Assembly (NCBI GenBank): GCA_964625525.1
Contig: CAZVEE010000008.1
Span: 1,764 to 65,763 of the forward strand
DNA length: 64,000 nt
Direction: 5' to 3'
Origin: an uncultured Alphaproteobacteria bacterium
Lineage (GTDB): Bacteria; Pseudomonadota; Alphaproteobacteria; JAJFIK01
Shown here piece by piece: positions 17,610-43,932 of the stretch; the first letter of the stretch is position 1, and each line of letters starts with the position of its first letter. The position numbers and the translations under genes are program-made. Below the pieces are notes generated by a model. It ran no database searches. It was not told where the DNA came from and was given only the letters and a program-made list of their open reading frames with translations.

Positions 17610-17636
17610 CCGTGGTTCTGGACAATCCTGGTGCCG

Positions 17637-20043: not shown

Positions 20044-20103
20044 GACGTCTCCTTTCCCCTAGAACCGGGGTATTGTCGGTCATGTCGCAGCGCAATTGAA
20101 GTC

Positions 20104-27372: not shown

Positions 27373-27388
27373 GCCATGGATCCATGGC
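27373..27388. promoter_or_regulatory. perfect 16-bp palindrome GCCATGGATCCATGGC, candidate TetR operator
   Basis: Self-complementary over all 16 nt. Centred about 60 nt upstream of the TetR ATG (27442). Confidence 0.4.
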
Positions 27389-27441
27389 TGCGGCTTTGCA
27401 GCCATCTCTCACGGTCGGGGCGTGAACCAGGAGAACAAAAA

Positions 27442-28164
27442 ATGGGAGAGCCAGAGGAAACAAGCCCCGAGGACACAAGCCCCGAGGACACAGGCCCCGA
27501 GGACACAGGCCCCGAGGACACAGGCCCCGAGGACACAGGTCTCGTGCGCGCGACGGCCGATGAGGGGGAAGCGGCCCCGCGCGGCGGTCGGCGGCGCCAG
27601 CAAAGCCGCCGCAAACTGCTGGACGCGGCCCGCCGACTCTTTGTGGAGCACGGCTATCACGACACACGGCCGCAAGATATTGCCCGGGCCGCCGATGTGG
27701 GGCACGGCACGTTCTATCTGCATTTTCCCGATAAGCGCGCTTGCTTCTTTGCGTTTGTGGATGAGGCGTCGGCAGAACTCGACGCGTTGGTGCATGCGCG
27801 CCTTGCGCGCACGGAAAACCTGCATGAGCGCTTCGAGGCGGTGATTTCAGCCGTCGTGGACTACCATATCGAGCATCCGAGCGTGCTGTCGGCCGCGGCA
27901 AGCAGTCCCGGCGTCATCGCCGGCGGCACGGACCATCGGGTCGCGGTTTTCGGGCGCTGGGCCCGCCAATGGGCGGAAAAGCTGAGCACCAGTGCCGAGG
28001 CTGGCGTGGTGTATGACGACTATAACTTCGAAGTGGTGGGCTGGGCGCTCGTGGGCATGCTCAATCCCATCTGCACCACCAAGCTGGTGACACCAGAAAA
28101 CCGCCAGTCCATCATCGACAATCTGGTGCGATTGCTGGTTCGTGGCCTGATCAAAACGAGCTGA
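27442..28164 (+). CDS. TetR/AcrR family transcriptional regulator with an N-terminal acidic pentapeptide-repeat extension
   Basis: HTH region RRKLLDAARRLFVEHGYHDTRPQDIARAADVGHGTFYLHFPDK. GGAGAA lies upstream of the ATG at 27442. The N-terminus reads EETSPEDTSPEDTGPEDTGPEDTGPEDTG. Confidence 0.85.
   Translation: MGEPEETSPEDTSPEDTGPEDTGPEDTGPEDTGLVRATADEGEAAPRGGRRRQQSRRKLLDAARRLFVEHGYHDTRPQDIARAADVGHGTFYLHFPDKRACFFAFVDEASAELDALVHARLARTENLHERFEAVISAVVDYHIEHPSVLSAAASSPGVIAGGTDHRVAVFGRWARQWAEKLSTSAEAGVVYDDYNFEVVGWALVGMLNPICTTKLVTPENRQSIIDNLVRLLVRGLIKTS
27451..27539 (+). repeat. 15-nt tandem repeat CCCCGAGGACACAGG, 5 near-perfect copies plus 1 degenerate copy
   Basis: Units at 27465, 27480, 27495, 27510 and 27525. 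The last four are identical and the first differs by one base. In frame (PEDTS/PEDTG). Confidence 0.9.
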
Positions 28165-28632
28165 TCAAGCCGAGCTGGCTCATGTAGACTGGCCTCTATT
28201 GTCTGGCGGCAGTACCTCCTTTGCGACGTGTAAGGAGGGTGCAAATCCGGTAAGCCTGTGACTGATCTCGCACGGTGTTTTCGGAATGGAAATGCGCGAG
28301 ATCCAAAGCCACAGGCGCTGTTGATTTGTGACCAGTCTTCACGGAAGATCTGCGCTCGCAACGGTTGGATACTATACATCCGACGGTCTGGTACACGGGC
28401 GGTCTGGCTGGCATGGTTAATGCCCCACCACAGGGCAACGTCTATGCTTGTCCCGTTTTGGGGCGCGTCTGTCTGTGTCCTGGGACTTTGCCGCATGAGG
28501 CCCGGGTCACGCCGTAATGTTTGAGTTCGGGTGAGGGGAGTAGCAGCCATCGTTCGCATGGGCTCAAGCTCGCGCCGGCGCCGCCGTCTTCGGGACGGCG
28601 GTTCGGGCGTTGAGCCGCGCAGCGCTCGTTCC

Positions 28633-30357
28633 ATGCGCGTCGCCTTGGGAGGGATTGCGGTGGCAGTCTGCCTCGGGGCGGGGTTTCCCGATGCGCGTGC
28701 CCAAACCGTTCCCTCGTCCATCGATCCCACCGATCCGCGTGACCGGGTGCAGCCGCCCCGAGAAGACCCGGAGCTGCCGGCCCTATCTGTGCCGGCCTAT
28801 CGCGGCACCATCCCCCCCGGTGCGGACGGCATTCGCTTTGTCTTGTCCGATGTGGCGATTGATGGGGCCACGGTGCTGGACCGTGACGCGGTGCGCGAGC
28901 CGTTCGCCGGGTTGATCGGGCGCGAGATCTCCTTGGTTGAGTTGTACAACGCGGCCAATGCACTTCAGGCGGCCTATCGCCAGCAAGGCTATCTGCTGAC
29001 CAATGTGGTCGTGCCCGCCCAACGCATGAGCGATGGGGTCGCGCGCATCCGGGTCGTGGAGGGCTATGTGGGCAGCGTGGTGCTGCAGGGCGAAGTGGGC
29101 GAGGTGCGCAAACTCGTCGAGCAGACCATGGCGCGGTTACAGCGGATCCGCCCCGTGCGCGCGCAGGACATTGAGCGGTACCTGCTGCTTGCCAATGACA
29201 TTCCGGGTATTTCCGCGGCGGGCGTGTTGCGGCCAGGTGGCGGGGGGGCTGGAGCCACCCAGTTGCTGGTGGAGTTGCGCCGCGATCCGTTCGACGGTTT
29301 TGTCACCGTGAATAATCGCGGCTCGCAATTCACCGGGCCGTGGTCGGCCGCCGTCGGCCTGTCGGGCAACAGCTTCTCGCGGCTGGGAGAGCGCACGGAA
29401 GGCTTTTACTACATCACACTCGATACACAGGACTCCACGGCGTTCGGAAATGGCGGCGGGCCGGAACAGACGTTCATTTTCCTGTCTTACGAGGCGCGCC
29501 TGGGAGGCGAAGGGACGCGGGTGGGCGTTGAGGCCAGCCAAGGCATCAGCCGCCCGGGCTTTAGCCTCGCCAATCTCCAGATCAAAAACCGCGTCGACCG
29601 CTACACGGTGGATGTGAGCCATCCGCTGATCCGCAGCCGGCGGCGCAACCTGACTTTGTTCGGCTCGCTCGAAAGCGTGCTGGAAAAGGTCAATCTGGGC
29701 GGCCCGGCCCTGAGCAGTCGTGACCGCCTGACAGTGCTGGGCCTCGGCGCGGAGTATCATTTCCGCGACGGCGCGGTGCGCAACAAGGGGGCGGAGACGC
29801 GCACGACGCTGGAGCTGCGCCAGGGCCTGCCGGTGCTTGGCGCCACCGAGCAGGATGATTTCGACCGTTCACGCCCGGAAGGCACGGCGGTCTTCACGGC
29901 CTTGCGTGGGCGGGTGGAGCGGCGCCAGGAGCTGGGCGCGAGTTTCGAGGCCTTTGCGGCCGCCGAAGGGCAATACGCTTTTGACACCCTGTTGAGCCAA
30001 GCGGAATTCCGCGTCGGTGGCGATGAATTCGGCCGCGCGTTCGATCCCTCAGAATTGGCTGGCGAGCATGGCGCCGGAGCGGCGGTGGAACTGCGGTATA
30101 ATGGGACGACACCGTTGCGCGCCATTCCCAACTACCAGCTTTACGGCTTCTATGATTGGGGGATCGTGTTCAACAATGATGAGGGTTTCCGGGACTCTGA
30201 GTCTTTGGCCTCCACGGGTGTGGGGGCCCGGGCGCGGGTGAAGACCGACTTCTATGTGGATGTGGAATATGCCCGCACCCTGAACCGGTCGCTGGGCTCC
30301 AAGGCCCGCGAGGAGCCCTCGAACCTGGTCTTCGTGCGCTTCACGGCGCAGTACTGA
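28633..30357 (+). CDS. ShlB/FhaC/HecB-family two-partner-secretion outer-membrane transporter (TpsB)
   Basis: Signal peptide MRVALGGIAVAVCLGAGFPDARA. POTRA-type block FVLSDVAIDGATVLDRDAVREPFAGLIGREISLVELYNAANALQAAYRQQGYLLTNVVVPAQRMSDGVARIRVVEGYV. C-terminal beta-barrel ending ...FVRFTAQY. Confidence 0.9.
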   Translation: MRVALGGIAVAVCLGAGFPDARAQTVPSSIDPTDPRDRVQPPREDPELPALSVPAYRGTIPPGADGIRFVLSDVAIDGATVLDRDAVREPFAGLIGREISLVELYNAANALQAAYRQQGYLLTNVVVPAQRMSDGVARIRVVEGYVGSVVLQGEVGEVRKLVEQTMARLQRIRPVRAQDIERYLLLANDIPGISAAGVLRPGGGGAGATQLLVELRRDPFDGFVTVNNRGSQFTGPWSAAVGLSGNSFSRLGERTEGFYYITLDTQDSTAFGNGGGPEQTFIFLSYEARLGGEGTRVGVEASQGISRPGFSLANLQIKNRVDRYTVDVSHPLIRSRRRNLTLFGSLESVLEKVNLGGPALSSRDRLTVLGLGAEYHFRDGAVRNKGAETRTTLELRQGLPVLGATEQDDFDRSRPEGTAVFTALRGRVERRQELGASFEAFAAAEGQYAFDTLLSQAEFRVGGDEFGRAFDPSELAGEHGAGAAVELRYNGTTPLRAIPNYQLYGFYDWGIVFNNDEGFRDSESLASTGVGARARVKTDFYVDVEYARTLNRSLGSKAREEPSNLVFVRFTAQY

Positions 30358-30367
30358 GGGGCGCGCG

Positions 30368-33300
30368 ATGGACATGACCGCACGCAGCAGCAAACGGCGC
30401 CGGGCGCGCCGGGCGACCTGGATGGGTGCCTTGCGGCATGGGGCCTCGGTCGCGGTGCTGGCCTCGCTGACGGCGTTACCGGTGCTGGCGAACCCTTCGG
30501 GCGGCACCATTCCGGAGGGCGGCGGCGCGGGCGAGATCGTGGATATTGATCCGTCTACGGTGGAAGTGCGCCAAGACAGTCAGCGCCTGATCATCGACTG
30601 GGATAGTTTCGATATCGAGGCGGGCGAGACCACGCGCTTTGTGCAGCCGGGGGCCGACGCCGTCGTTTTGAACCGGGTGACGGGCGGTGGCGGGCTCTCC
30701 TCGATCCTGGGCACCCTGGAAGCCAATGGCCAAGTGTTCCTGATCAACCCCGCCGGGGTGCTGATCGGCAACGGCGCCACTGTGAACGTACACAGCTTTG
30801 TCGCCACCACGGCCGATATCAGCAATCAGAACTTTCTCGACGGCGAGTTGATCTTCAATACGCCCAGCGCCGCGCTTGGCGCGGCAATTGTCAATGAAGG
30901 GACCATCAGTGTCGCCGAGGCAGGCCTTGCCGCCCTTGTCGGCCCCTCCGTCCGCAATAGCGGTGTGGTGGCCGCGCGACTGGGGCGCACGGTGCTGGCC
31001 GGGGCAGAGACCTTTACGCTCGATCTGACCGGGGACAATCTGATTTCCTTTGAAGTGCCGTCCGATGGCTTCGTGCCCATGGTGGCGCAGGAGGGCACGA
31101 TCAACGTGGATGGCGGCATCGTCTATATGACTGCTCAGACCGCCGCCGGTATCATCGACACGGTCATCAGCATGGAGGGCGTCGTCGAGGCGCGCTCGGT
31201 GGGCCTGGAGAATGGCGAGGTCGTCCTCTACGGCGGCCCCGGCGGTACCGTCGCGGTGACCGGCAGCATCGACGCCACAGGCGATGACGGCGGTGAGACA
31301 GGCGGGCGGATCGCCGTTTCCGGTGCTCGCGTTGTCCTGGACGATGCCGTGCTTGACGCAAGCGGTGCCGCCGGTGGCGGCGATATTGCCGTGGGCGGAC
31401 GGTTCGTGGACGCCGGCCCCGGAGACGAGCCGGTTGTCACCGAGGCTCAGGATGTTGTGTTCGACGCAGGCTCCACCGTTGCCGCCGACGCGACAGTGGC
31501 GGGACGGGGCGGCTCGGTCACCTTGACCGCCACCGACATGGTCACTTCCGATGGAACGGGCAGTGTGACCGGACCCGATGGCGGCGGCTCGGTGCTTCTT
31601 GATGCCGGCGGCGCGCTTGACGTGGACGGTGCTTGGGACACCGGCCCCGATGCCACGTTCACCGTGCGGGCCGATGTGGTGGGGGTCAATGCGGGCGGCG
31701 TGGATCCGGCCATCGTGGCGCAAGTGCTGGCCGAGGGCGGCGATGTCACCGTCGCATCGGCCAGTGACGTGTTCCTGTCCGTGGGCTTTGGCACGGGAAC
31801 CGCGACAGATGCGGGCAATCTGACCGTGACTGCCGTGGAGCGGGTGGTGATCGCCCCTGGCGTAACCATTGAGCTGACCGGCGGAGACCTGGCGCTGTCG
31901 GGTGCTGCGATCGATATGGGTGCGGGCAGCGGGCTGACCGTCACCAATGGCGTGCTCTCGCTGGATGTTCTTGGGGACGTGTCCATTGGCACGCTGACGG
32001 TGATCCAGGAGGGCGCGGGTGCGGCCAGTCTCGCCCTGAGCAGCGGCGGCTTCATTGACGCGCTGGATGCGGACAACCCCTCGCTCGTTTTCGAGGGCGC
32101 GGTGGATGTGGCGCTGAGCGGTATCGGCATTGGCGTGGGGGCGCCGTTGCGCATGGATGCCGGGCCGGATGGGGGGACGCTGAACCTAACCACATTGGCC
32201 GGTGCCGGGGGCGGGGTGCAAGCGATCCTGACGGCGGGCAGTGCCTTCGACAGCGTGGCCGTGAACCTGGCGGATGCCAGCCATGGCGTTGATATTGTCC
32301 TGCCTTTGGGCGACCGGGTGCTGGTAACCCCAGGGCTTGGTGTCAGCACGCTGAGTAATGTGACCTTGACCGCGGCAGGGAGCGACTTTGCGTTTGCGCT
32401 CACCGAGGCGGGGGGCATCGTCCGGGTGGCCAGCGGCACGGTCACCAGCCCTGGGGACGTGTCGCTCTCCGCGCTGGGAGACCTGATTATCGGCACTGGG
32501 CCGGGCGTTGCCATCGCCATGACGGGGGTGAATGGGCTGCTCACGCTGGAGTCCGGCGGTAGTATTTTGTCCTCCAGCGGTCTGATCGATGTGGGGTTGG
32601 GCGGACGATTGTCTTTCGAGGCGACCGGTGATGCGGGCCGTCGCGACGCGCCGTTGCTCCTCACGGGCGCGACCCAGGTGGCCGGAACGGCTGGCGGTGA
32701 CATCGCCTTGCGGCTGAACGGGCCCGGGGTGCTGGGCATTGGCGAAGCGGGCGGCCGGTCCGGCCTGACGGCGACCGCCGGCGCGATTACCCTCGGGGCA
32801 GATGATGTCGCGATCGCGCAGGCGATCACGGCGGCGACCACGGTGAGCCTGGCGACCGTCAGCCCCGGCACGGTGTTTACGGTCGGGGGCGCGGATGGCG
32901 AGAGCGGCCTGACGGCGGCCGAGCTGGCACTGATCGCGGCGGATCTGCTGGAGATCGCGGCAAGCGGCGGCACGCTCAGCGTTGCTGGTGCTGGCGATGT
33001 TGACCTGTCAGCGGCCGCGTTCGACGTGACACTCAGTGCTGATACCATCCTGTTTAATGACGCGGGCACACTGACCCTCGCGCCGGACGCGGTGGCCCGC
33101 CTTGCGGGCGTAAGCATTCTGGGCGGTGGCACGCGCAGTGATTTGGCAGCGGCGAACGGGGCGCTGTTGATCGATGCCAGCGGGGCAGTCGTGCTTTCCA
33201 CGGCGCTCGCCCAAATCGCTGGGACGAGCGGCAGCCTGATCCTCGAAAATGCTGGTGCCCTCAGTGTGGGGACCGTTGACGGGGTTGAGGGGCTCACCAC

Positions 33301-36300
33301 CGATCAAGGCGCCAGCCTGACGGCGCAAGGCGGTGCGCTCACTCTGGAGCGGATTGTAACCACTGGCGGCGAGACGGGTCTGGCGGCGGACGGTGATGTG
33401 CGTTTCGGCACCGAGGGCGGCCTTGATGCCCAGACCCATGACGAGGCGGTGTCGATCGTGAGCGCGGCCGGGGCACTGGCCCTCGAGGACGGCACGTTCG
33501 CCCTTGCAGGCAATACGCTGTTACTGCGTGCCGGGCTCGCCATCGCGGCGGTGATCCAAGGCACGGCGGACAAGACCGTGACGCTCGCCGGCGACGCGGC
33601 GACTGGTGATCTGAACGTGACCCTGGCGGATGGGGCCCTCGCCATTGGGACCATCGGCGACACGGCAGGCCTCAGCGTGCCGCAGGGCAGCATTGCGCTG
33701 ATCACCGATAGCCTCGACATCGGCGCGCCGGTGGCCGCGGAGACGAGTATTCTGATCGCAGCCCTTTCAGCGGACACGGAATTTGCGCTGGCCAGCGCCG
33801 CCCCTGGGCTGGCTTTAAGCCAGGCGGAAGCGCGGTTGCTGGAGACCCTTGGCACGGTGACGCTTCGGGCGGGCAGCGCAGCGGCGATGCGCCTGAGCGA
33901 CGATACGGTGCTGGATCTCACGCCGGTGGACTGGTCGGCATTGTCGCTGCAGGCGGCGACGATCTTGGCCGGTGGCTCGCTGTTGACGGACGGTACGGCG
34001 CTTGATGTCGCCGCGCCGGTGGTCCTGACCCGGACGGTCATCTTCGATACGGCGGCGGCCGGTAGTGCGGGGGCAGATCTCTTTGTGGCCGGGCCGGTCG
34101 CGGTGGCACCGGGTGGCCCCTTTGGGATCAGCGCGCTTGCCGGCACAGCCGGTGCCGTGACTTTCAACGGAGCGGTCGGCACCGTTGACGCGCCGCTTGC
34201 GGCCTTCACCGCCAGTGGTGAACGCATAGCCGCACAAGACATCATCGCGCGGGGCCCTGTGAGCCTTGTGGGCCTGTCCGGCGTCACGTTGGGCGGGGAC
34301 GGCGATGGCCTGTCAGTGATCGCGCAGGGCGATGCCTTAAGCGTCTCCGGTCCGCTGGCTCTGTTGGAAGAGGCGCTGTTGAGCACCGCGACGGCGGCGG
34401 GCCTGGGCGGGCCTATTGGCCTCGACGCGGTGACGCTGAACGGCTTTGGCCTGACCCTTGATGCGGGGACGGACGGTGCCATTACCGCCACATCCGTCAG
34501 CGGTGGTGCGGGCCGGACTGGTCTGTTGGACATCGCCCGCGCCGACAGCGTCGTGGTGGCCGAAACGCTGACCCTCGATCGATTGCGGCTGCAAGACCTG
34601 ACGACACTGGCGCAGGTGAGCGGCGCCTTTAACCTCAACGCCCTTGAGATCGCGGCCTCGCCGGCGCAGGTGCGCTTCTTTGGTGGCGGCACGGTGGTGG
34701 ATTTCGTCGGCCCGCTGAACACCGGTGGTCTGACCCTGGGCGGTGGCGGGACTTATGACTTCGTGACGGGGCTCCAAGCGCTCGCCAGCCCTGTGATCTT
34801 GGACGCGAGTGTTCGCGCCGGGGGAGCGGGTCTGGTGGTCGCGGATGTGACGCTGACTGGAGACACGGCGCTGACCACGGCCGATGGCGGACCCATCACG
34901 CTTGGTGTGGTGACTGCGGATGGTCAGGCGCTGAGCCTTGATGCCGGTGCCACGGGCGCGGTGACAGTGGCCCGTGTCCTCAATGGAATGGACGGGGCGC
35001 CGCGAGGCGCTTTCACCCTGGTGAACGCGGGCTCGGCGATCATTGACGGTCCGCTGCGGGCCAGCGCAGTGGCGTTCCAGCCGGGCCAGGGCAGTGTGAT
35101 CGTAACCGGGGGCCTGGAGGCAGACAGTGTAACCGTCGCCGCCCAACCCTTTACACTGGCGCTGCTCGACGGCGCGCGGGTGCGCGACGCTGTGGCCTTC
35201 CAAAATCTCAGCGGTCTCACCCTCGGCGATGCGATGACGGATGTCTTCGCCTTTGACGGCGGGTTTAGCGCGCCCAATGCGGTGACGCGTCTCGCGGGCA
35301 CGGTCCAGACCATCGACGCGCCGATCACTGTCGGGACGGTGGTGCTGGATGCGAACACCGTGCTGTCCACGGTGGGGCCGAGCGGGGGCAGCGCGATCCG
35401 GATCGGCGGACCGGTCACGGGTGGCGGGATGGTCGGGCAGGGCCTGAGCGTGATCGGCGGCACCGCTGGCAGCATCCTGCTCGAAGGCGATGTGGGGGCC
35501 GACGGCACCATCACGGCGGCGGCGTTCGAGGCGGCAGCGATCAGTGTTCAGGATATTTTCACCCGTGACGGCGTGATTTTCGTCGCGCGCAATCCGGATG
35601 GCTCCGCCGGCATCGTCACGCTCAACAGCCGGTATGAAACCGGTGGCGGAGATCTGGTTGTTGACGCCAATGTGCGGTTCACGGGCGACCTGATCATCGA
35701 CACGACCGATGGCGGTTTGGTGCAAAGCGGCACGGTCACCTTGGGCCAGGATGGTGCGGCCATCGATCCGCTATCGTCGGACTCGGTGGTCAGCGTCATC
35801 GCCGGAGAGACCGTGCGCATTGGTGGTGTGCTCACCGAAGATGCGGGCTCGCTGGACCGCTTCACCATTTCCGCCGCATCGGGCGTGGAAATCGCCGGCG
35901 GCGTCTTCGGCGACGCCCTGATCGTGGAAAGCGGTGCCTTCAATGGCGATCCGACGGCCATTGCGAACCAGGACATTTCGATCACCGGGCCGCTGCTGGT
36001 TGCTGGCACGGCCGATTTCTCGGCCACTGGGTCTATCCTGATCAACGACACGTTCACCGCCCAGACGGCGAACCTGTGGGCGATCAATGACGTCACGGTG
36101 CGCGCGCCTCTGACGGCTGCTGTCTTGCAACTGGAGTTGGATGGGATCGCCGAGACGACCGGTGATGGCTTCCTGACCATCACGGACAGTTTCCTGATCG
36201 GGAGCCTGACGGAGGGACAAGGGCGGTCTGACTTGAAAGGCGAGATCCGCGGCGTGCGCTCTGATGATGCCGCGCTGTTTGGGCGCCAGCTCAGCGAGCG

Positions 36301-36526
36301 GCCGAATGAAGCTTTCTTGCTCAATGGCTGCGTGGTGTCGGTGGGCTGTTTGCAGCTTGATCGCTCAACGATCGTCTTGCGCAGCTTCGAGATCGTGAAC
36401 CAACCGTTCGAGGCCGATGAGGCGAATGCGGAATTGCGCTTCTCCGATCTCGGCAATTTCGAAATCTTCCGCCGGCTGGGCATCATCAATATCTGGGCCG
36501 ATCAAGAGGACGAGGATGAGGACTGA
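30368..36526 (+). CDS. filamentous-hemagglutinin-type TpsA exoprotein (2052 aa)
   Basis: N-terminal TPS secretion domain (IIDWDSFDIEAGETTRFVQPGADAVVLNRVTGGGGLSSILGTLEANGQVFLINPAGVLIGNGATVNV). About 1800 aa of G/A/T/V/L-rich beta-helix-like sequence. Starts 11 nt after the tpsB stop. Confidence 0.9.
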   Translation: MDMTARSSKRRRARRATWMGALRHGASVAVLASLTALPVLANPSGGTIPEGGGAGEIVDIDPSTVEVRQDSQRLIIDWDSFDIEAGETTRFVQPGADAVVLNRVTGGGGLSSILGTLEANGQVFLINPAGVLIGNGATVNVHSFVATTADISNQNFLDGELIFNTPSAALGAAIVNEGTISVAEAGLAALVGPSVRNSGVVAARLGRTVLAGAETFTLDLTGDNLISFEVPSDGFVPMVAQEGTINVDGGIVYMTAQTAAGIIDTVISMEGVVEARSVGLENGEVVLYGGPGGTVAVTGSIDATGDDGGETGGRIAVSGARVVLDDAVLDASGAAGGGDIAVGGRFVDAGPGDEPVVTEAQDVVFDAGSTVAADATVAGRGGSVTLTATDMVTSDGTGSVTGPDGGGSVLLDAGGALDVDGAWDTGPDATFTVRADVVGVNAGGVDPAIVAQVLAEGGDVTVASASDVFLSVGFGTGTATDAGNLTVTAVERVVIAPGVTIELTGGDLALSGAAIDMGAGSGLTVTNGVLSLDVLGDVSIGTLTVIQEGAGAASLALSSGGFIDALDADNPSLVFEGAVDVALSGIGIGVGAPLRMDAGPDGGTLNLTTLAGAGGGVQAILTAGSAFDSVAVNLADASHGVDIVLPLGDRVLVTPGLGVSTLSNVTLTAAGSDFAFALTEAGGIVRVASGTVTSPGDVSLSALGDLIIGTGPGVAIAMTGVNGLLTLESGGSILSSSGLIDVGLGGRLSFEATGDAGRRDAPLLLTGATQVAGTAGGDIALRLNGPGVLGIGEAGGRSGLTATAGAITLGADDVAIAQAITAATTVSLATVSPGTVFTVGGADGESGLTAAELALIAADLLEIAASGGTLSVAGAGDVDLSAAAFDVTLSADTILFNDAGTLTLAPDAVARLAGVSILGGGTRSDLAAANGALLIDASGAVVLSTALAQIAGTSGSLILENAGALSVGTVDGVEGLTTDQGASLTAQGGALTLERIVTTGGETGLAADGDVRFGTEGGLDAQTHDEAVSIVSAAGALALEDGTFALAGNTLLLRAGLAIAAVIQGTADKTVTLAGDAATGDLNVTLADGALAIGTIGDTAGLSVPQGSIALITDSLDIGAPVAAETSILIAALSADTEFALASAAPGLALSQAEARLLETLGTVTLRAGSAAAMRLSDDTVLDLTPVDWSALSLQAATILAGGSLLTDGTALDVAAPVVLTRTVIFDTAAAGSAGADLFVAGPVAVAPGGPFGISALAGTAGAVTFNGAVGTVDAPLAAFTASGERIAAQDIIARGPVSLVGLSGVTLGGDGDGLSVIAQGDALSVSGPLALLEEALLSTATAAGLGGPIGLDAVTLNGFGLTLDAGTDGAITATSVSGGAGRTGLLDIARADSVVVAETLTLDRLRLQDLTTLAQVSGAFNLNALEIAASPAQVRFFGGGTVVDFVGPLNTGGLTLGGGGTYDFVTGLQALASPVILDASVRAGGAGLVVADVTLTGDTALTTADGGPITLGVVTADGQALSLDAGATGAVTVARVLNGMDGAPRGAFTLVNAGSAIIDGPLRASAVAFQPGQGSVIVTGGLEADSVTVAAQPFTLALLDGARVRDAVAFQNLSGLTLGDAMTDVFAFDGGFSAPNAVTRLAGTVQTIDAPITVGTVVLDANTVLSTVGPSGGSAIRIGGPVTGGGMVGQGLSVIGGTAGSILLEGDVGADGTITAAAFEAAAISVQDIFTRDGVIFVARNPDGSAGIVTLNSRYETGGGDLVVDANVRFTGDLIIDTTDGGLVQSGTVTLGQDGAAIDPLSSDSVVSVIAGETVRIGGVLTEDAGSLDRFTISAASGVEIAGGVFGDALIVESGAFNGDPTAIANQDISITGPLLVAGTADFSATGSILINDTFTAQTANLWAINDVTVRAPLTAAVLQLELDGIAETTGDGFLTITDSFLIGSLTEGQGRSDLKGEIRGVRSDDAALFGRQLSERPNEAFLLNGCVVSVGCLQLDRSTIVLRSFEIVNQPFEADEANAELRFSDLGNFEIFRRLGIINIWADQEDEDED

Positions 36527-39500
36527 GGGCGTGCGCACAACAGCATGGGGGATCCTGCGGGCGCTCACGGTCGGGCTCGTTGGCTTGGTGGCCGCATGCG
36601 CGACGCCGCCCGGCCTGCTGTCGGCGGATTTCGACGGCACCATTACGCGCCCCGACCTGATCGTGACATCTGTGGGGCGCAATGCCATCGGCGAGACCTG
36701 CCGGCTGAAGGCCGATCCGGACGCGGCGCGGGTGAGCGGCGAGACTCACTATGTCATTCAGTGTGGGGAGTGGGAGACGCCGAGCGCCACGATCGTGCAA
36801 GTCGCGGCCGGGACGCCCAGCGGCCCGGGCTCCGACCTTTGGGCGCGCGCCATCGCGATCGACTTGGATTGCGGCGAGCCGAGCGCGCTTGGCTTTCAGG
36901 GCATGGGCCCCTCGCGCCGCTATGACTGCCGGCTGAAGACAGGCGGCTGGACCATGACCGCCTTTGAGGGCGAGGCGGGCGGCGCGCGCTATGTGGGGCG
37001 CAGCATTCCGGTCTCTCTGGGGCCGGTGGAGCGAGCCATTGGTTTTCTGTCGGGTCGCTTGAGCGCGGCCCAGGCGGGCGGCGAGGATGCTGCGCGCGGT
37101 GAGCGCACCCGCGCGATCGCCGAGCTGGAAGCGGAACTGGGCGGGCGGACTTATACGGCCGGCGATATCGAAAGCTATGACAAGCTGCTCGATGTGGCGT
37201 CTTATTATAACAGCATTGGGAATTATCCGGTCTCGGAGAAATATTACCGCGATGCGCTGGATGTGCTTCAGCGCAATTTGGATGCCGATGATCCGGCGCT
37301 GGCTGATCCATTGATGCGGTTGGGGCTGGCGCTGAGCAGCCAGGGCAATTTCCGCGACGCCGATGAGGTATTCGCCCGCGCCGAGCGTCTGGCGGCGGCG
37401 GATATTGACCCGCTGAGCAGCCTGCGTCTTCAGATCTATCAATCCATGCATCTGGCGCATCAGCAGCGTTGCGCTGAAGCCTTGGCGATTTTGGAGCCAG
37501 CGCAACGCGCATTGGCGGCGCTGGCCAACCGGGAAGCGGGCGGCGGGGAAGCGGTCCTGCGCACCGGGTCTTCGGCGGGGGCCGGTGTGGAGTTCGCGCT
37601 CAGTTTGGGCTTTGAAGCCGCGTTGCATTTGTGCCTGAACAGTCTGACGCGGGCGGAGAACACAGTGGACCGGGCCATGGCGGAACTCTCCCGCCTGACC
37701 GCGACACCACAGGAATGGCGCTGGGTGTTCGCCTCGTTGCGCGCTGAAATTCTGCGCCGCCAACGCATCTATGCGGGCGGGCGCCAGGAACTCACGACGA
37801 CCATCGCGGAGCGGCGCCGGGTGCTTGATCCCTCGCGCCCCGAAGCCATCGATCTCCTGGCCTTGGGTCAGATCCAGGCCCAGGAAAACCGGCCCGAGGC
37901 GGCCATGGAAGCCTATGAGCGCGGTCTGGCTATTGTGCGCGAGAACAATGACGGCCTCAGCCTTGATCAGGTGTTGCCCTATCTGAAAGTGCTCTACACC
38001 CAGGCCGAGGAAAACCCAGATGATGCGCGCGAGAACAGCCTAAAGCTGTTCGATGCGGCCCAGATCGTGCGGGATTCCGTCACCGCCCAGACGATTTCGC
38101 AAATGGCCGCGCAACTGGCCAGCGGTGACGCGGAAGTGGCGGTGCTGGCGCGGGAATTATTCGAGCTGCGCCGTGACATCAACGACTTGAACTTGTCCAT
38201 TGACCGGGCATTGGCGCGCCCCGACGCTCAGGCTCGGCTGGACGAAATCGACGCCATGCAGGACCGGCGCGACGACTTGCGTGAAGAGCGGGCCCGCATC
38301 GACCAGACGCTGCAAAGTGCGGCGCCCCGCTTTAACCAGCTCATGATGGAACCGGTGGCGACCGAGCGCGTGATGGACGCGCTGGGCCCGGACGAAGCCA
38401 TGATCCAGATCCTGCTGGGTGAGCAGGAAAGTGTGTCGATCCTCATCACCCGTGACGGGATCACGCCAGTTTTCCGCTCTCTTGGTGCTGATGAGGTGGG
38501 CGATGCGGTGCTGCGCTTGCGCCAGGGCTTGGTGATTGACCGGGAGCAGCGGCTTGGCTCTTTCGATACCGATCTGGCGCATGCGGTCTATAACGCCTTT
38601 ATCGAACCGTTCGAAGCTCAGCTTGCCGACAAACGCCATCTGATCATGGTGCCTTCGGGGCCGCTATTGAGCCTGCCGCTCGGGGTCCTGGTGCGCGAGC
38701 CGGCTGTTGTGCGGCGTGAGGATTATCGGGACGTGGCGTGGCTGGCGCGGGATTTCGCCATCAGCATCGTGCCGTCGCCGCGCAATCTGGTGGATCTGCG
38801 CTCCACCGTGCGCCCCAGCGTGGCGCCAGAGCCGTTTATCGGCTATGGCGATTTCCAACCGGTGTTCGATCGCGAACCGGTGGACGGCGACAGTTGCGCC
38901 GCGCGCCTGTACCGGGCCGTGCGCAATGCCCAACGGTTACCGGAGACGGGGCAGGAGCTTTTGGATGTGGCACGGGCGCTCGGGGCGTCGGCACGGTCGG
39001 TGCGGCTGGGGCGCTCCTTCACCGAAGCCGCAGTGCGGCGCGAGGCTTTGGACCGCTACCGGATCGTGTATTTCGCGACCCACGGCTTTATGCCGGCCGG
39101 AGACAATTGCCTCAACGAACCGGCGCTTCTGGCCACGCCGGGCTTGAGCGAAGCGGGGGAGGCGGATAATGGCCTCTTGCGCCTGAGCGATGTGGTGTCG
39201 TTGAACCTTGATGCGGATATGGTGGTGTTGTCGGCGTGTAACACGGGCGGGGGCGATGGCACGGGCGGGGAAGCACTCAGTGGCCTGGCCCGCGGCTTTT
39301 TCTACAGTGGGGCCCGCTCGCTGCTGGTGTCGCATTGGTATGTGGAAAGTGCGGCATCGCGGGATCTGATGACAACGCTGTTCTATCTTCAGCGTTCAAA
39401 CACGACACTGGGGTCTGCCGAGGCTATGCGCCGGGCGCGCCAGTCTCTCATGGTCAGCGAAGACGGTCCGTACACAGCCTATCGCTCTCATCCAACCTTC

Positions 39501-39554
39501 TGGGCCGGGTTCACTATCATCGGTGACGGCGCGCGGCCTGTGTCGGTGCGCTAA
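36516..39554 (+). CDS. lipoprotein TPR-repeat CHAT-domain (caspase-like) protease
   Basis: The ATG at 36516 overlaps the tpsA 3' end by 11 nt. Lipobox LVAAC. Central TPR-like helices. C-terminal CHAT domain with His (YFATHGF, codon at 39081) and Cys (VVLSACNTGG, codon at 39237). Confidence 0.85.
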   Translation: MRTEGVRTTAWGILRALTVGLVGLVAACATPPGLLSADFDGTITRPDLIVTSVGRNAIGETCRLKADPDAARVSGETHYVIQCGEWETPSATIVQVAAGTPSGPGSDLWARAIAIDLDCGEPSALGFQGMGPSRRYDCRLKTGGWTMTAFEGEAGGARYVGRSIPVSLGPVERAIGFLSGRLSAAQAGGEDAARGERTRAIAELEAELGGRTYTAGDIESYDKLLDVASYYNSIGNYPVSEKYYRDALDVLQRNLDADDPALADPLMRLGLALSSQGNFRDADEVFARAERLAAADIDPLSSLRLQIYQSMHLAHQQRCAEALAILEPAQRALAALANREAGGGEAVLRTGSSAGAGVEFALSLGFEAALHLCLNSLTRAENTVDRAMAELSRLTATPQEWRWVFASLRAEILRRQRIYAGGRQELTTTIAERRRVLDPSRPEAIDLLALGQIQAQENRPEAAMEAYERGLAIVRENNDGLSLDQVLPYLKVLYTQAEENPDDARENSLKLFDAAQIVRDSVTAQTISQMAAQLASGDAEVAVLARELFELRRDINDLNLSIDRALARPDAQARLDEIDAMQDRRDDLREERARIDQTLQSAAPRFNQLMMEPVATERVMDALGPDEAMIQILLGEQESVSILITRDGITPVFRSLGADEVGDAVLRLRQGLVIDREQRLGSFDTDLAHAVYNAFIEPFEAQLADKRHLIMVPSGPLLSLPLGVLVREPAVVRREDYRDVAWLARDFAISIVPSPRNLVDLRSTVRPSVAPEPFIGYGDFQPVFDREPVDGDSCAARLYRAVRNAQRLPETGQELLDVARALGASARSVRLGRSFTEAAVRREALDRYRIVYFATHGFMPAGDNCLNEPALLATPGLSEAGEADNGLLRLSDVVSLNLDADMVVLSACNTGGGDGTGGEALSGLARGFFYSGARSLLVSHWYVESAASRDLMTTLFYLQRSNTTLGSAEAMRRARQSLMVSEDGPYTAYRSHPTFWAGFTIIGDGARPVSVR

Positions 39555-39559
39555 TACTC

Positions 39560-41596
39560 TTACTTGGTGACAACGGAAATCGTGCGGCCGGTTTCACCGG
39601 CACGGGCGCGCTCCAGGTGGAACTGGATCAGGCCGTCCTGGGGCAGGCGCTTGGCAAGGATTTCGAAGTGCTCATGGGCGCGCTGGGCATCACCTTGTGC
39701 CAAGGCGGCAAAGCCCTTTTCGTAAGTCTCCAGCAACACCGCCGCCGGCGAGCCCGGATCGAGAGGCTCGTAGGTGGGGATGGGCTGAGTCTTGCCCGGT
39801 AGGATCAGATCACCGACGGACCGGAACAGAAGGCCGGGCGTGCGGGCGCGGGTGTCTTCACTGACCAGAATATTCGTGCGCACCGTTTTGTTCGCCGCTT
39901 CCAGTCGCGCGCACGTGTTCACCGCATCGCCAATGGCCGTGTAATCAAAGCGGTCATGTCCGCCGAAATTGCCGACCACGGGATCGCCTGTGTGAACGCC
40001 GATCCGGGTGCGCCCAAGCATACGGCCTTCCCGGCGTTTCTCGGCGCGGAAGCGTTCGGAATAAGCGTGGATTTCCAAGGCGCACGCGACGGCCCGTTCT
40101 GCGTGGTCTTCAGAGGGCTCAGGCGCGCCAAAAAAGCTCATGGATCCGTCGCCTAAAAACTTATCGAGCGTCCCGCCATGGGCGAGAATGATGCGCCCCA
40201 CATTATCGAGATAGGGCGAGAAGAAATCCTGCAAGTCGTTGGGTTCCATGCTCTCCGCGATACTGGTGAAGCCTTCCAGGTCGGTGAACATCAGCGTGAT
40301 GGTCTCGCGATGCCCGCCCAGTTCCAGGCGCGAGGGATCCCGCTCTAACCGCGAGACGATGGCGGGGGGCACATATTTGGCGAAGGCGGAGCGGATCATC
40401 GCCCGTTGGTTTCGGTCCTCGCGGCCCGCATACACGATGGTGATGAACGCCGCAGCGGCGAACCCGAAGGTCGGTGCCATCACCGGCATCATCAGCCCGC
40501 CCATGTTGAACATGAGGCCCGATCCTAATGTCAGGGTCAGGAGCACCGCCACCGACATCAGGATCTTGCCCCACATGGGAATGCCCAGGACCGCGATCCA
40601 AATCGCCAGGCCACAGACCACCAGCGCCAGCAGGACCTCCATGAAAAAGCTGAACTCGTCCTGGGTCCGCCCGTCCATGATTTGCGCCAGAATATGGGCA
40701 TGGACGATCACTCCGGGCATGCGTTGGGCGTATTTGCTTTCGCTGGGCACGACGGCAAGCGGTGTGCGGTGGAAGTCGATATCCGACATCACGGGCCCGA
40801 TCAGGGCGATTTTGCCCTCCAGCCAGGCGGCCGGCAGGCTGCGCACCGTGTGGGCGTCATACATCTTGAACGCTTCCACATAGGTCTCGCCCTCGGCCAT
40901 GGTGGGCACACCGTGCCAGTCGATCCGCTGTTGGCGCACTTGGGGCACTTCATGGCCCAGCGCATGCGCGATGGCGGCGGCGAACTGGTAGCGGATGGGG
41001 CTGGTTTCGTTCCAGACCGGGTAGTGGTGACGCACGGTGCCGTCAAATGTGTTGCGCCGCAGATAGCCGTAGCCCGTGGGCCGGTCGCCGATGAACGAGC
41101 GCAGGATCGCCGCGCGTTTTGCGGTTGTGCCCAGCGCCTCGTCCCATGTGATGGGGATAATCTCGGTGCGTGCTTCCCGGATCGCCCGGCGCAAGTTTTC
41201 GTCCTTGCCCTCGTCGGTTTCTGTATCCAGGGCAAAGTCCACGCCGATCGCGCGCACGCCCGCATCGTCAAGCGCCCGAATGGTGCGCGCCAAAAAGCCC
41301 CGGTCGAGCGGCACCCGGTAGCGCAGGGTGTCGAGCGTCTCTTCGGTCACCCCGATGATCACGATGTCCTGGTTCTGCGCCATGGTGGGCGACGCGAGGG
41401 CGACACGCAGATCGCGGGTGTATTCCTCAATGCTGGTGAAAAACTGCCACCGCGGCAACAAGAGGGTCAGTATCACCGCCACTACAAAGCCAAACGCCAG
41501 CCAATGCAGCGCATAAGGTGCCGCGCGCGCACGCGTCGGGCTCTGCGAACCCGGTGCGGCCTCGACCGGCGGCGAAAGTGCAGCGTCATCCGACAT
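39560..41596 (-). CDS. CHASE2 sensor domain-containing class III adenylate/guanylate cyclase
   Basis: N-terminal TM helix, a periplasmic CHASE2-like region and a TM cluster, then the cyclase core (TLMFTDLEGFTSIAE ... GDGSMSFFGAP ... IGVHTGDPVVGNFG ... DYTAIGDAVNTCARLE). Confidence 0.9.
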   Translation of the reverse strand: MSDDAALSPPVEAAPGSQSPTRARAAPYALHWLAFGFVVAVILTLLLPRWQFFTSIEEYTRDLRVALASPTMAQNQDIVIIGVTEETLDTLRYRVPLDRGFLARTIRALDDAGVRAIGVDFALDTETDEGKDENLRRAIREARTEIIPITWDEALGTTAKRAAILRSFIGDRPTGYGYLRRNTFDGTVRHHYPVWNETSPIRYQFAAAIAHALGHEVPQVRQQRIDWHGVPTMAEGETYVEAFKMYDAHTVRSLPAAWLEGKIALIGPVMSDIDFHRTPLAVVPSESKYAQRMPGVIVHAHILAQIMDGRTQDEFSFFMEVLLALVVCGLAIWIAVLGIPMWGKILMSVAVLLTLTLGSGLMFNMGGLMMPVMAPTFGFAAAAFITIVYAGREDRNQRAMIRSAFAKYVPPAIVSRLERDPSRLELGGHRETITLMFTDLEGFTSIAESMEPNDLQDFFSPYLDNVGRIILAHGGTLDKFLGDGSMSFFGAPEPSEDHAERAVACALEIHAYSERFRAEKRREGRMLGRTRIGVHTGDPVVGNFGGHDRFDYTAIGDAVNTCARLEAANKTVRTNILVSEDTRARTPGLLFRSVGDLILPGKTQPIPTYEPLDPGSPAAVLLETYEKGFAALAQGDAQRAHEHFEILAKRLPQDGLIQFHLERARAGETGRTISVVTK

Positions 41597-41830
41597 GAGC
41601 GTGATGTAATCCTCTTCGGGAGCCTTTCGGCGCGCATCGAGTGTTCACCAACCCCACAAAGAGGTATCATAGAGCATAAGATCACGCGTCGCGTCATGCC
41701 CGTGAAATTGCCACAAGGCGAGGGGATGATTCCGCCGCGGATATGGATCCTGGCCTGCCAGCGCCCCCGCGCGCAACCCAGGTTTTGGCCGCGTGATCAA
41801 CGCGTTAGTGCTCAAGAGGGGTATGCAATC

Positions 41831-42688
41831 ATGGCGAGTCAGCTCATCCGGAAAGCCGTCCGGATCACAAGTGCTGCGGTTTTGGCCACGGTTCTGGGGA
41901 CTGTGTCCGCGCTGGCGGAGGAACTGGTCGTGATTCGCTCCACCGCGCCGGATATCGCGGTCGGTGCGGTGCTGGTCTCCGGCGAGACCATCGATCTACC
42001 GGCGGACACAGAAGTGGAGATCCTTTCCGAACGCGGCAACCGCACGGTGATCAGTGGTCCGTTTTCCGGCGGCGTGCAGGCACAGGGCAAGGTGATCGGT
42101 ACCTCCCGGCTGGAACGGCTGCGCAACGCGATTTTCGGGACAGACGGCGGCACGCTGGTGCCCGGAGGGACCCGGCGGGCGGAAATCGAGCGGCCCGGCG
42201 CCGAGGAGGACGCGGGTCCAGTCATTCCAGCAGTCCATGTGGATCTGACCCAGACCGGCACCTGGTGCGTGGAAGAGGGCGCGGCGGTGATGCTCACCCG
42301 CGGCGACTTCGAACGCTCGCGTGCCAGCCTCGGTCAACTGCCCAGCGGCGAGACGGCCCAACTGCAATGGGCGGGCCTCGACCAGCGGGTGCCCTGGCCG
42401 GCCAACGTGCCGGTTGAAGACGGGAGCCAGTATCGGGTCGTGCGTGTGGTCTATGAAGCCGACACCTCGCCCACCCGCACCGGCGATGGCGATCAACCGA
42501 TCCAGCAGGAAGTGCAGCTTGAGCCGGTGATCTTGACCATGCGGTTGGTGGAGCCGGCGCCAAACCCGGCCGCCGCCGTGCCGGTGCTGGCGCGCAACCA
42601 GTGCATGACGCAGTTCGAGCGGGCGGTGGTCGCGCTGACCGAGCCCATCCCCGATGCCGTCACCAACACTGAGTCCGCCGTTCGATAA
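41831..42688 (+). CDS. secreted hypothetical protein, FecR-like N-terminal domain (tentative)
   Basis: ATG at 41831. Signal peptide MASQLIRKAVRITSAAVLATVLGTVSALA. VLVSGETIDLPADTEVEILSERGNRTVISGP resembles the FecR sandwich pattern. The upstream 383 codons of ORF 40682-42688 are antisense to the cyclase. Confidence 0.55.
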   Translation: MASQLIRKAVRITSAAVLATVLGTVSALAEELVVIRSTAPDIAVGAVLVSGETIDLPADTEVEILSERGNRTVISGPFSGGVQAQGKVIGTSRLERLRNAIFGTDGGTLVPGGTRRAEIERPGAEEDAGPVIPAVHVDLTQTGTWCVEEGAAVMLTRGDFERSRASLGQLPSGETAQLQWAGLDQRVPWPANVPVEDGSQYRVVRVVYEADTSPTRTGDGDQPIQQEVQLEPVILTMRLVEPAPNPAAAVPVLARNQCMTQFERAVVALTEPIPDAVTNTESAVR

Positions 42689-42756: not shown

Positions 42757-42843
42757 TCACGGCCGCGTGCTACCACATGCATCGCACCTTGAGGTGTGAA
42801 TGGCGGGGCGGGTGTCTGACCCGCCCGAACCGTGGGGACGCGC

Positions 42844-43920
42844 ATGGCTGGCCTGGGCAGGGCACTTTTTCTCATCGTCGTGCTGGCGGCACTGCTCGCG
42901 GCGGGTGTTTATGGCTATTTCGAGTATGTGCAGCGGGACGTCGGCGCAGAGACACGCCGAGGCGGCGGACCCGTGCCCGTGACCGTGGCGACAGTCCGGT
43001 TTGATGCGTTCTCCGACCGCATTGAGGCCCTCGGCACCGCCCAGGCCAATGAATCCGTCGACATCACCTCCAAAGTCACCGAAACCGTGCGCACCATCGC
43101 CTTCGAGGATGGGGCGACAGTGGAGGCCGGCGCCATCCTGGTTGAATTGACCGACGAGGAAGAGGGTGCGGCACTGGCCGAGGCGCGGGCCACGCTGCTG
43201 GAAGCGGAACAACAGTATCAACGCATTGCCGGGCTTGTGAACCGAGGCAATGCCACCGAGGCGCGCCTGGAACAGACGGTCTCAGTGCGCGATCAAGCGC
43301 GTGCCCGCGTGCGCGCCATCGAGGCGCGCCTTGCCGACCGGCTGATCCGCGCGCCTTTCGACGGCATTTTGGGCTTGCGTCAGGTCAGCCCCGGCACACT
43401 CGTCACCCCTGGCACCGTGATCACCACGCTTGATGACGTGGATCCGATCAAGCTCGATTTTGCAATTCCCGAGACCTTCTACGTGGCCGTGCGCCAGGGT
43501 CAGCCCATTGCCGCGACGGCCGATGCCTATGCGGATGAAACGTTCACCGGCACTGTGACGGTGGTGGACACACGCATCGATCCGCTCACCCGGTCGGTGA
43601 CTGTGCGCAGCGAGATCCCTAACGGCGACGGGCGCCTGCGCCCGGGCATGCTGTTGCGGGTGATCATCGAAAAGGATCAGCGCCGCTCCCTGATGGTGCC
43701 GGAGGACGCGGTCGTGCCCCTCGACACCCGGGTGTTCGTATTCCGGCTGACCGAGGACAACACTGTCGAGCGGGTGGAAATCATCACGGGCGGCCGGCGG
43801 CCGGGCGCGGTTGAAGTGTTGAGTGGCTTGGAGGCAGGCGACCAGGTCGTCGCCGGCGGCACCAATCGGGTGCGGCCGGGCGCGCCGGTCAATGTGGTCG
43901 GCAGCCGCGATAGCGAATAA
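42844..43920 (+). CDS. efflux RND transporter periplasmic adaptor (MFP) subunit
   Basis: N-terminal anchor LGRALFLIVVLAALLAAGVYG, a coiled-coil hairpin region, and the barrel-sandwich/beta-barrel blocks typical of the HlyD/AcrA family. An alternative GTG start lies at 42832. Confidence 0.85.
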   Translation: MAGLGRALFLIVVLAALLAAGVYGYFEYVQRDVGAETRRGGGPVPVTVATVRFDAFSDRIEALGTAQANESVDITSKVTETVRTIAFEDGATVEAGAILVELTDEEEGAALAEARATLLEAEQQYQRIAGLVNRGNATEARLEQTVSVRDQARARVRAIEARLADRLIRAPFDGILGLRQVSPGTLVTPGTVITTLDDVDPIKLDFAIPETFYVAVRQGQPIAATADAYADETFTGTVTVVDTRIDPLTRSVTVRSEIPNGDGRLRPGMLLRVIIEKDQRRSLMVPEDAVVPLDTRVFVFRLTEDNTVERVEIITGGRRPGAVEVLSGLEAGDQVVAGGTNRVRPGAPVNVVGSRDSE

Positions 43921-43932
43921 GGGATCCACGCC

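Follow-up and report, generated by a model that had tools for sequence, protein, structure and literature searches.

The CHASE2 domain is a widespread extracytoplasmic sensor, and papers of 2016 and 2023 state that its ligands are unknown (PMC5192318, PMC10581220). In the only worked example, from Sinorhizobium meliloti, the signal seems to be a protein and to reach the receptor from the outer membrane: CHASE2 cyclases make cyclic AMP (cAMP) on an extracellular protein signal via the outer-membrane TPR and barrel protein NsrA, encoded immediately upstream of cyaK (PMC7529298), in a cascade that runs from NsrA through CyaK, CyaD1 and CyaD2 to Clr (PMC7529298, PMC5498481, PMC13001267). In Burkholderia, the BiofilmReg operon combines a LysM-FecR protein with a CHASE2 histidine kinase (PMC5192318), and in Myxococcus xanthus the periplasmic TPR-CHAT protein DdvA acts in transmembrane signaling, for which signal-induced cleavage has been proposed (PMC11506125). 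Here we describe a locus in a 64 kb stretch of DNA from an uncultured alphaproteobacterium (contig CAZVEE010000008.1; the whole stretch examined is called the window), where five neighboring genes encode a transporter (TpsB) and an exoprotein (TpsA) of the two-partner secretion (TPS) type, a TPR-CHAT lipoprotein, a CHASE2 class III cyclase and a secreted protein that we call P5. It is very probable that the five genes are one functional module. We give an even chance to the further reading that they form a trans-envelope signaling relay, in which the caspase-fold lipoprotein links the TPS filament to the CHASE2 adenylate cyclase. Such a module would carry signals from the outer to the inner membrane and into a CHASE2 receptor, with a TPS system, a lipoprotein of caspase fold and two domain families that lack annotation as its parts.

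Genes were called from an open reading frame (ORF) map and profile searches, and all five were verified at their coordinates by the ORF map together with Pfam and NCBIfam. On the plus strand, tpsB (28633..30357 from its ATG, in an ORF that opens with a GTG at 28531; 574 aa) is followed by tpsA (30368..36526; 2052 aa), which begins 10 nt after it, and by the TPR-CHAT gene (36516..39554; 1012 aa). An earlier sequence-only reading of this DNA had given the same order, which the ORFs and Pfam matches bear out. It also had the CHAT ATG overlapping the final 11 nt of tpsA and a convergent CHASE2 class III cyclase 5 nt past the CHAT stop, and both hold: the ATG at 36516 comes after the Shine-Dalgarno-like sequence AAGAGGACGAGG and ahead of the tpsA TGA at 36524-36526, and the cyclase gene (678 aa) occupies 39560..41596 on the minus strand. 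The profile searches that it proposed matched TPS, POTRA_2/ShlB, TPR/CHAT, CHASE2 and Guanylate_cyc. Its fifth protein, called a divergent secreted FecR-like protein, is indeed divergent and has a cleavable signal peptide (P5; 41831..42688, plus strand; 285 aa), but the same searches gave no match to FecR.

The case for a module is carried by the conservation of this neighborhood. We found 80 species-representative loci via their CHAT protein, one genome per species (numbered with L below), and annotated them by iterative hidden Markov model (HMM) searches that started from the window proteins and ran on six-frame ORFs; absences are consequently lower bounds, and a giant ORF that the end of a locus had truncated often went unrecognized as TpsA. 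P5 together with the CHASE2 cyclase was present in 19 of the 43 loci whose CHAT protein carries the four-cysteine N-terminal domain described below (the N-domain), compared with 0 of the 37 other TPR-CHAT loci (Fisher p=1.4e-6), and at least one TPS gene was present in 27/43 as against 2/37 (Fisher p=3.7e-8). Among all fetched loci that had enough flank, P5 and the cyclase lay directly downstream of CHAT in 21 of 44 cases, a Ser/Thr kinase was adjacent in five and an OmpA-like gene in four. The carriers include members of the Rhodospirillales, Sphingomonadales, Caulobacterales, Acetobacteraceae, Burkholderiaceae and other beta-proteobacteria.

Gene order is shuffled among these loci. The nearest relative, the metagenome-assembled genome (MAG) GCA_964612085.1 (L001; CHAT 54% identity), has the same five genes, order and flanks. 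At 30-34% CHAT identity, L003, L005 and L008 retain tpsB-tpsA-CHAT with overlapping junctions, and L007 has CHAT, P5, CHASE2 cyclase and a cyclic nucleotide monophosphate (cNMP)-binding protein on one strand. Other orders are tpsA–CHAT–P5–cyclase–tpsB (L034, L038, L039), tpsB–tpsA–CHAT–P5–cyclase (L047, L054), tpsA–tpsB–CHAT–P5–cyclase (L070) and, on Sphingobium plasmids, CHAT–cyclase–P5–tpsB–giant ORF, with a Crp/Fnr gene ahead in S. herbicidovorans (L092). When P5 was used as the seed, CHAT–P5–cyclase–TpsB was recovered with 4-nt stop/start overlaps in all three contexts, with tpsA upstream in L096, downstream in L099 and absent within 10 kb in L098; a fourth P5-seeded contig, frameshifted, showed cyclase–P5. 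P5 adjoined the CHASE2 cyclase in every sampled context. The conserved core is therefore CHAT–P5–CHASE2 cyclase–TpsB, with TpsA a frequent fifth member that is dispensable in the neighborhood; the usual layout is a CHAT–P5–CHASE2 cyclase–TpsB operon whose genes overlap by 4 nt, with a giant TpsA usually just upstream of CHAT, and the order in the window and L001 is a rearranged copy with the cyclase inverted.

The sequence-only reading had surmised a conserved but unstudied envelope module, and this has stood up well, given co-occurrence in alpha- and beta-proteobacteria, CHAT proteins about 30% identical and several gene orders. It had staked its case on the CHAT/TPS/CHASE2 adjacency reaching past close relatives, and in the co-occurrence test that it suggested the adjacency does so. 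On membership it was right about the TPS genes and CHAT, but the cyclase and the fifth protein, which it described as flanking, are both core. Two loci stood apart. L041, on contig CALPVM020000031.1, is labeled as an Akkermansia muciniphila MAG and holds a proteobacterial CHAT–P5–CHASE2 cyclase–TpsB module; it is probably a mis-binned contig. The CHAT gene of a Pseudosulfitobacter plasmid lies in an unrelated context.

TpsB proteins export their cognate TpsA across the outer membrane, and both partners in the window have the features of this type. TpsB is an Omp85 transporter of the ShlB-FhaC type, with the signal peptide MRVALGGIAVAVCLGAGFPDARA-Q, a POTRA_2 domain (9e-17, aa 69-144) and a ShlB barrel (4e-17, aa 216-533), and orthologues were present in 24 related loci. 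TpsA is a Gly/Ala/Val/Thr-rich exoprotein whose signal peptide is of the extended kind. It matches the TPS domain (Pfam 4e-32, aa 64-290, nt 30557-31237; TIGR01901 1e-22) and carries an NPAG motif at aa 127. Past the TPS domain, its body gave no further Pfam domain. TpsB and TpsA alone would make a complete known system, and so we considered an ordinary TPS adhesin or toxin locus, such as one for contact-dependent inhibition (CDI), with fortuitous neighbors. This is extremely unlikely, as motif and Pfam searches of TpsA found no VENN, ELYN, pre-toxin or toxin domain, and the downstream gene encodes a 1012-aa lipoprotein and not a small immunity protein. The locus thus departs from the CdiB/CdiA/CdiI plan, in which a VENN-type motif precedes the C-terminal toxin and the next gene is a small one for immunity. 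Chance proximity is also excluded by the co-occurrence statistics and the shuffled gene orders across distant taxa.

The C-terminus of TpsA is distinctive. Its sole two cysteines, C1988 and C1994, lie in the motif FLLNGCVVSVGC (nt 36314-36349), 60 residues from the end, and the protein finishes in the acidic ...WADQEDEDED. This type I C-terminus, [YF]x[FL]NxCx[IV]xxxxC with an acidic end, occurs in the window and 14 other loci (L001, L003, L005, L008, L013, L015, L016, L021, L033, L043, L048, L061, L080 and L092), and a type II C-terminus ends in ...SSWGNEALW(Q) or ...FPNLGRVW. Two giant proteins encoded beside the TpsB or CHAT gene of the module, L092 16551-22829 (Sphingobium herbicidovorans pMSHV) and L096 1-6981, have no detectable Pfam TPS domain; the former is unmatched by the window TpsA profile, yet it ends in the same Cys motif. 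Both may be very divergent TpsA proteins.

Coutte et al. are said to have described in 2001 the Bordetella pair FhaB/FhaC with its maturation protease SphB1, which raises the question of whether the CHAT lipoprotein is simply a maturation factor. On such an account it would process or release TpsA as SphB1 does FhaB, and the cyclase and P5 would be a separate sensory unit nearby. SphB1 offers a fair parallel, since there too the C-terminal region of a TPS exoprotein is processed by a dedicated outer-membrane lipoprotein protease; however, it belongs to the subtilisin-type autotransporters and its gene lies elsewhere, whereas the CHAT protein has a caspase fold and a gene that overlaps tpsA. 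Nor does SphB1 have a link to a cyclase or P5. The genetic tie between TpsA and CHAT is close. In 24 of 36 loci with enough flank, the CHAT gene begins where a giant ORF of 700-3300 aa on the same strand stops. Once L012, L034, L043 and L061 are added by hand, about 28 of the 36 have such a TpsA-like ORF running up to CHAT or overlapping its start. It is kept in the cyclase-less loci L003, L005, L008, L023, L048, L061 and L080, the conserved Cys motif and acidic tail of TpsA accompany the CHAT gene, and the tpsA/CHAT junction in the window has the 11-nt overlap and the Shine-Dalgarno-like sequence. We nevertheless judge maturation alone to be rather unlikely. CHAT–P5–cyclase–TpsB operons with 4-nt overlaps exist where tpsA is absent within 10 kb (L098, L017, L022), P5 together with the cyclase was found only with the N-domain CHAT subfamily, and the account leaves unexplained why a signaling protein, cyclase or Ser/Thr kinase, follows so nearly constantly.

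The kinases in question take the place of P5 and the cyclase in about a tenth of the related loci. In these cyclase-less loci the Ser/Thr kinase gene comes after CHAT (L015 13056-15572, L021 13064-15250, L033 13369-15735 and L008 13128-15029), and the kinase has a C-terminal DUF4384 in L015, L021 and L033 that was undetected in L008. We read these kinases as another transmembrane output of the TpsA/CHAT pair. We find that the TpsA/CHAT pair is nearly always joined to a transmembrane signaling protein, either the cyclase or a Ser/Thr kinase. A relationship between P5 and the DUF4384 tail of these alternative kinases was tried and rejected (hhalign probability 0.14%).

TPR-CHAT proteins such as Craspase and separase are switchable caspase-fold proteases. 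The protein in the window matches CHAT (1e-54) and TPR_12 (9e-13) in Pfam, and its CHAT domain (aa 616-1004) lies behind a TPR solenoid (aa 199-515). AlphaFold2 (AF2) modeled the full-length protein with a predicted local distance difference test (pLDDT) of 84.5 and a predicted template modeling score of 0.81, and a Foldseek search with this model returned the Craspase TPR-CHAT chain 7y84_C (8e-13), DdvA (1e-11) and separase (6e-11), within a range of E values from 1e-9 to 1e-13. The catalytic dyad is present as His856 in ATHG (nt 39081) and Cys908 in LSACNT (nt 39237), the latter being the Cys codon that the sequence-only reading had placed at 39237. A comparison of 39 homologues, the most distant about 20% identical, showed no exception to C908 and kept H856 in at least 90% of them. 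At the N-terminus, the signal peptide MRTEGVRTTAWGILRALTVGLVGLVAA-C28 ends in a lipobox (LVAA-C28, nt 36597-36599) with Ala at +2, and homologues P0001-P0006 and P0009 have an equivalent L-x-[AG]-C. We conclude that this is a lipoprotein with an intact His-Cys dyad, of the outer-membrane type by its predicted location. Between the lipobox and the solenoid lies the N-domain (about aa 45-180, nt 36648-37055), roughly 140 residues with four invariant cysteines. It gave no Pfam match and only chance-level matches to PDB sequences, and AF2 modeled it confidently (pLDDT about 85-90). It is the CHAT proteins with this N-domain that accompany TPS and CHASE2 genes, so that the domain serves as the mark of their subfamily.

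The described TPR-CHAT proteins are alike in fold and different in setting. Craspase (the type III-E gRAMP with the TPR-CHAT protein Csx29) and separase share the TPR-CHAT fold and are partner-gated switchable proteases, but they are cytoplasmic or nuclear, gated by RNA or securin, and have no signal peptide, lipid anchor or envelope context. DdvA is closer, being the only characterized extracytoplasmic TPR-CHAT protein, with a conserved His-Cys dyad and a proposed role in turning a periplasmic, probably protein, signal into a proteolytic transmembrane step. Unlike the window protein, it forms one polypeptide with a transmembrane (TM) helix and a zinc anti-sigma domain, and what it sets free is an ECF sigma factor, whereas the protein described here is a separate lipoprotein with a four-Cys N-domain that is encoded beside TPS genes, P5 and a cyclase. 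Neither the zinc anti-sigma and TM fusion nor an ECF sigma neighbor was found in the window, where the neighbors are tpsA, the cyclase, a TetR regulator and RND genes.

DdvA also invites the view that the TPR-CHAT protein works without catalysis, as an adaptor or sensor with a resting or vestigial dyad that bridges TpsB/TpsA to P5/CHASE2 by conformational change. The structure obtained for the DdvA TPR-CHAT shows it at rest, and replacing either dyad residue (H862A, C907A) left DdvA behaving as the wild type does (PMC11506125). In addition, TPR domains are protein-binding modules, and a CHAT substrate is only a candidate here. The invariance of C908 and near-invariance of H856 across 39 homologues speak for selection on catalysis, and we regard a purely scaffolding role as unlikely.

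The cyclase is an inner-membrane receptor with Pfam matches to CHASE2 (7e-31) and Guanylate_cyc (3e-18). Hydropathy places a first TM segment at about aa 25-56 and a cluster of three TM segments at aa 313-390; the periplasmic CHASE2 domain spans aa 42-329 (nt 40610-41473) and the class III cyclase domain aa 431-604 (nt 39785-40306), both on the minus strand. Its motifs FTDLEGFT, DKFLGDG and DYTAIGDAVNTCAR hold the metal Asp, Lys/Thr, Asn and Arg residues of a cyclase. We take the enzyme to be class IIIb, and its Lys/Thr pair presumably indicates ATP as the substrate. A tblastn alignment that covers aa 79-582 pairs it, at 29.6% identity, with a CHASE2 cyclase encoded on pSymB of S. meliloti (H16), which we take to be CyaK.

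The S. meliloti system is accordingly the nearest described relative on the cyclase side. Its inner-membrane CHASE2 class III adenylate cyclases have the same architecture as the window cyclase, its envelope partner contains a TPR region, and its output is read by a Crp-family regulator. The differences lie in the partners: NsrA combines FecR, TPR and a C-terminal barrel in one polypeptide and is not an Omp85/TpsB protein, and the S. meliloti system has no CHAT protease, P5 or TpsA. On pSymB (L090), an ORF at 5162-8821 directly upstream of the CHASE2 cyclase, presumably nsrA, encodes FecR, about 360 aa of TPR and, at its C-terminus, a barrel that matches none of the Pfam barrel families. There too, then, the CHASE2 cyclase has a TPR region and an outer-membrane barrel beside it, in this case fused in one protein. 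NsrA was set aside as a TpsB homologue, since it is made up of FecR, TPR and barrel and has no ShlB or POTRA. The S. meliloti TPR protein SMb20495 was likewise considered as a CHAT protein and is only tentatively disfavored, as Sinorhizobium was absent from the ten commonest genera in a tblastn search of plasmids with the CHAT protein.

The cyclase domain also matched the PycC models of PADLOC (best 2e-27), and this raised the idea of a defense module that senses attack by phage or a competitor at the cell surface and in which a cyclic nucleotide triggers an effector, as in Pycsar or in defense under DdvA control. DdvA, the only characterized periplasmic TPR-CHAT protein, does control a defense island, and in related loci the cyclase has membrane proteins with a cNMP-binding domain as neighbors. 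However, what matches PycC is the fold common to class III cyclases, and PADLOC gave no other match. Pycsar pairs a cytoplasmic PycC with an adjacent cNMP-binding effector, whereas the window has a CHASE2 membrane receptor and no effector gene was found in it. The flanks of the window and its relatives are housekeeping and efflux genes and not defense islands, and the Lys/Thr pair suggests ATP as the substrate. A defense role therefore seems very unlikely.

P5, the second core partner of the protease, required a new description. Its architecture consists of an N-terminal beta domain (aa 31-81), a linker, a beta-sandwich (aa 135-240) and two C-terminal helices. In the AF2 model (pLDDT 76) the linker is disordered and carries an invariant Arg115 in the motif Gly-x-x-Arg115; Cys146 in the beta-sandwich is also invariant, as is Cys258, which starts the second C-terminal helix. 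The label FecR-like given to this protein in the sequence-only reading failed at the levels of sequence, profile and fold. With the threshold relaxed to E<=10, P5 still matched nothing in Pfam or NCBIfam. Of 27 relatives collected from related loci, none matched FecR in Pfam at E<=5, and neither they nor 74 database homologues had any Pfam domain. A P5 profile found no match among PDB sequences and aligned to the FecR domain of S. meliloti NsrA with an hhalign probability of 0.1%. Foldseek of the AF2 model against the PDB returned generic Ig/FN3-like folds only, at E>1e-3, with FecR/PupR absent from the top 50, a whole-model search being less sensitive for the small N-terminal domain. By these results P5 is not detectably FecR-like. 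None of the five module proteins has a Pfam FecR domain, and among them there is no partner of the NsrA kind that joins FecR, TPR and barrel; the barrel here belongs to TpsB and the TPR region to the CHAT lipoprotein.

An exhaustive HMM search found 1812 clusters of the P5 family at 50% identity, 1198 of them at E<=1e-10, and nearly all of the best 150 listed are stand-alone proteins of 230-260 aa. P5 is thus a large unnamed secreted family without a Pfam model. BiofilmReg and Fec-type signaling resemble the locus in placing a small periplasmic protein beside a CHASE2 receptor and in passing from the outer membrane through a periplasmic transducer to the inner membrane. They differ in that P5 has no FecR signature, the output is a cyclase, and there is neither a TonB-dependent transducer nor a sigma factor.

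From these parts we propose how a relay might work. TpsB would export TpsA, which would serve as a surface-exposed sensor or adhesin, and the TPR part of the lipoprotein would hold either the Cys motif and acidic C-terminus of TpsA or the POTRA domains of TpsB in the periplasm. An event at the surface, such as contact, tension, filament loss or binding, would turn the CHAT protease on, and CHAT might then cut a periplasmic partner. The best candidate is P5 at linker Arg115, with the C-terminus of TpsA as the alternative; the Gly-x-x-Arg115 site is attractive because several clan CD enzymes cleave after Arg. Intact or cut, P5 could act as a CHASE2 ligand or co-receptor that sets cyclase activity, and the cAMP would be read by cNMP-binding proteins, namely MscS-type channels and Crp-like regulators in related loci and, in the window, perhaps through a CRP-type box upstream of tpsB. 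We infer the substrates and the direction of signal flow. The full chain of a TPS filament sensor, CHAT cleavage of P5 or the TpsA tail, and cleaved or released P5 as the CHASE2 ligand is a tentative scheme that we consider possible but doubtful.

The broader relay rests on the domain identities, the conservation of lipobox and dyad, the TPR-CHAT-like model, the linkage statistics and the shuffled gene orders, and also on the cNMP-binding and Crp neighbors and the precedent of the S. meliloti CHASE2 cyclase (PMC7529298). Several observations weigh against it. The core operons that have no tpsA within 10 kb leave room for a sensor other than TpsA. P5 and the cyclase are missing from about half of the related CHAT loci, and the kinase or OmpA-like gene that replaces them in some implies that the protease is not strictly cyclase-dependent. 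With the cyclase gene of the window inverted onto the other strand and P5 divergent, one-operon coupling applies to tpsB-tpsA-CHAT only. A search of the 64 kb found no cNMP-binding gene, nor any Crp, Ser/Thr kinase or OmpA-like partner elsewhere in it, and the CRP-type box is not conserved in L001. The dyad mutants of DdvA had no phenotype under the conditions tested (PMC11506125). Finally, the proteolysis, protein contacts, co-transcription and cAMP output of the relay are all proposed steps.

Related loci suggest what the output could be. ORFs for cNMP-binding proteins abut the module in 12 loci, and six of these were run through Pfam. Three are fusions of an MscS channel with cNMP_binding (L029 6049-8619, L047 15539-17035 and L054 15590-17071), which suggests an ion-channel output for the cyclic nucleotide, and three have the cNMP_binding domain only (L017, L022 and L091). 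In the window itself, the 468-nt region upstream of tpsB contains the CRP-type box TGTGACTGATCTCGCA (28257..28272, plus strand). It is the sole match to TGTGA-N6-TCACA in the 64 kb with at most one mismatch allowed, and it has one mismatch; 1.2 matches are expected by chance across the window, so the one found does not exceed that expectation. The spacer between the cyclase and P5 contained no box of the CRP, Clr or FNR type, and neither did L001. As a candidate cAMP feedback site, the box at 28257-28272 is suggestive only.

A full-text search of the searchable library found no paper that ties CHAT to two-partner secretion, hemagglutinin, POTRA or CHASE2 in a comparable sense, and the sole CHASE2-plus-CHAT match concerned cyanobacterial metacaspase–CHASE2 fusions. 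With P5 and the four-Cys N-domain, the analysis adds two domain families that had no annotation. It also gives a compact set of candidate partners for a CHASE2 cyclase, namely a caspase-fold lipoprotein, P5 and an Omp85-type transporter, and so the question of how CHASE2 is switched becomes testable with a handful of mutants. If the relay is real, it would be the first defined input mechanism for CHASE2 and the first signaling role for a TPS system, extending two-partner secretion from adhesins and toxins to signal transduction, and the lipoprotein would be the second extracytoplasmic CHAT protease after DdvA and a much more widespread one.

The remaining features of the locus are minor. The divergent spacer between the cyclase and P5 (41597..41830, 234 nt, intergenic) presumably holds two promoters. 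Scans for promoters and terminators gave counts not above shuffled expectation, with no enrichment of promoter-like sites in this spacer, and an Rfam search of the window gave no match. Several minus-strand ORFs of 300-600 aa lie antisense to tpsA at 30476-36489; repetitive coding sequence of high GC content typically gives rise to such ORFs, and we see no sign that they are real genes. The module is flanked on one side by a gene for a TetR-family regulator (27376-28164) and on the other by an RND efflux pair, a membrane-fusion protein and an AcrB-like pump (42832-47055). In L001, the closest relative, the module likewise sits between a TetR gene (1357-2010) and an RND pair (16389-20633), and in both genomes it looks as if the module had been inserted between a regulator and its pump.

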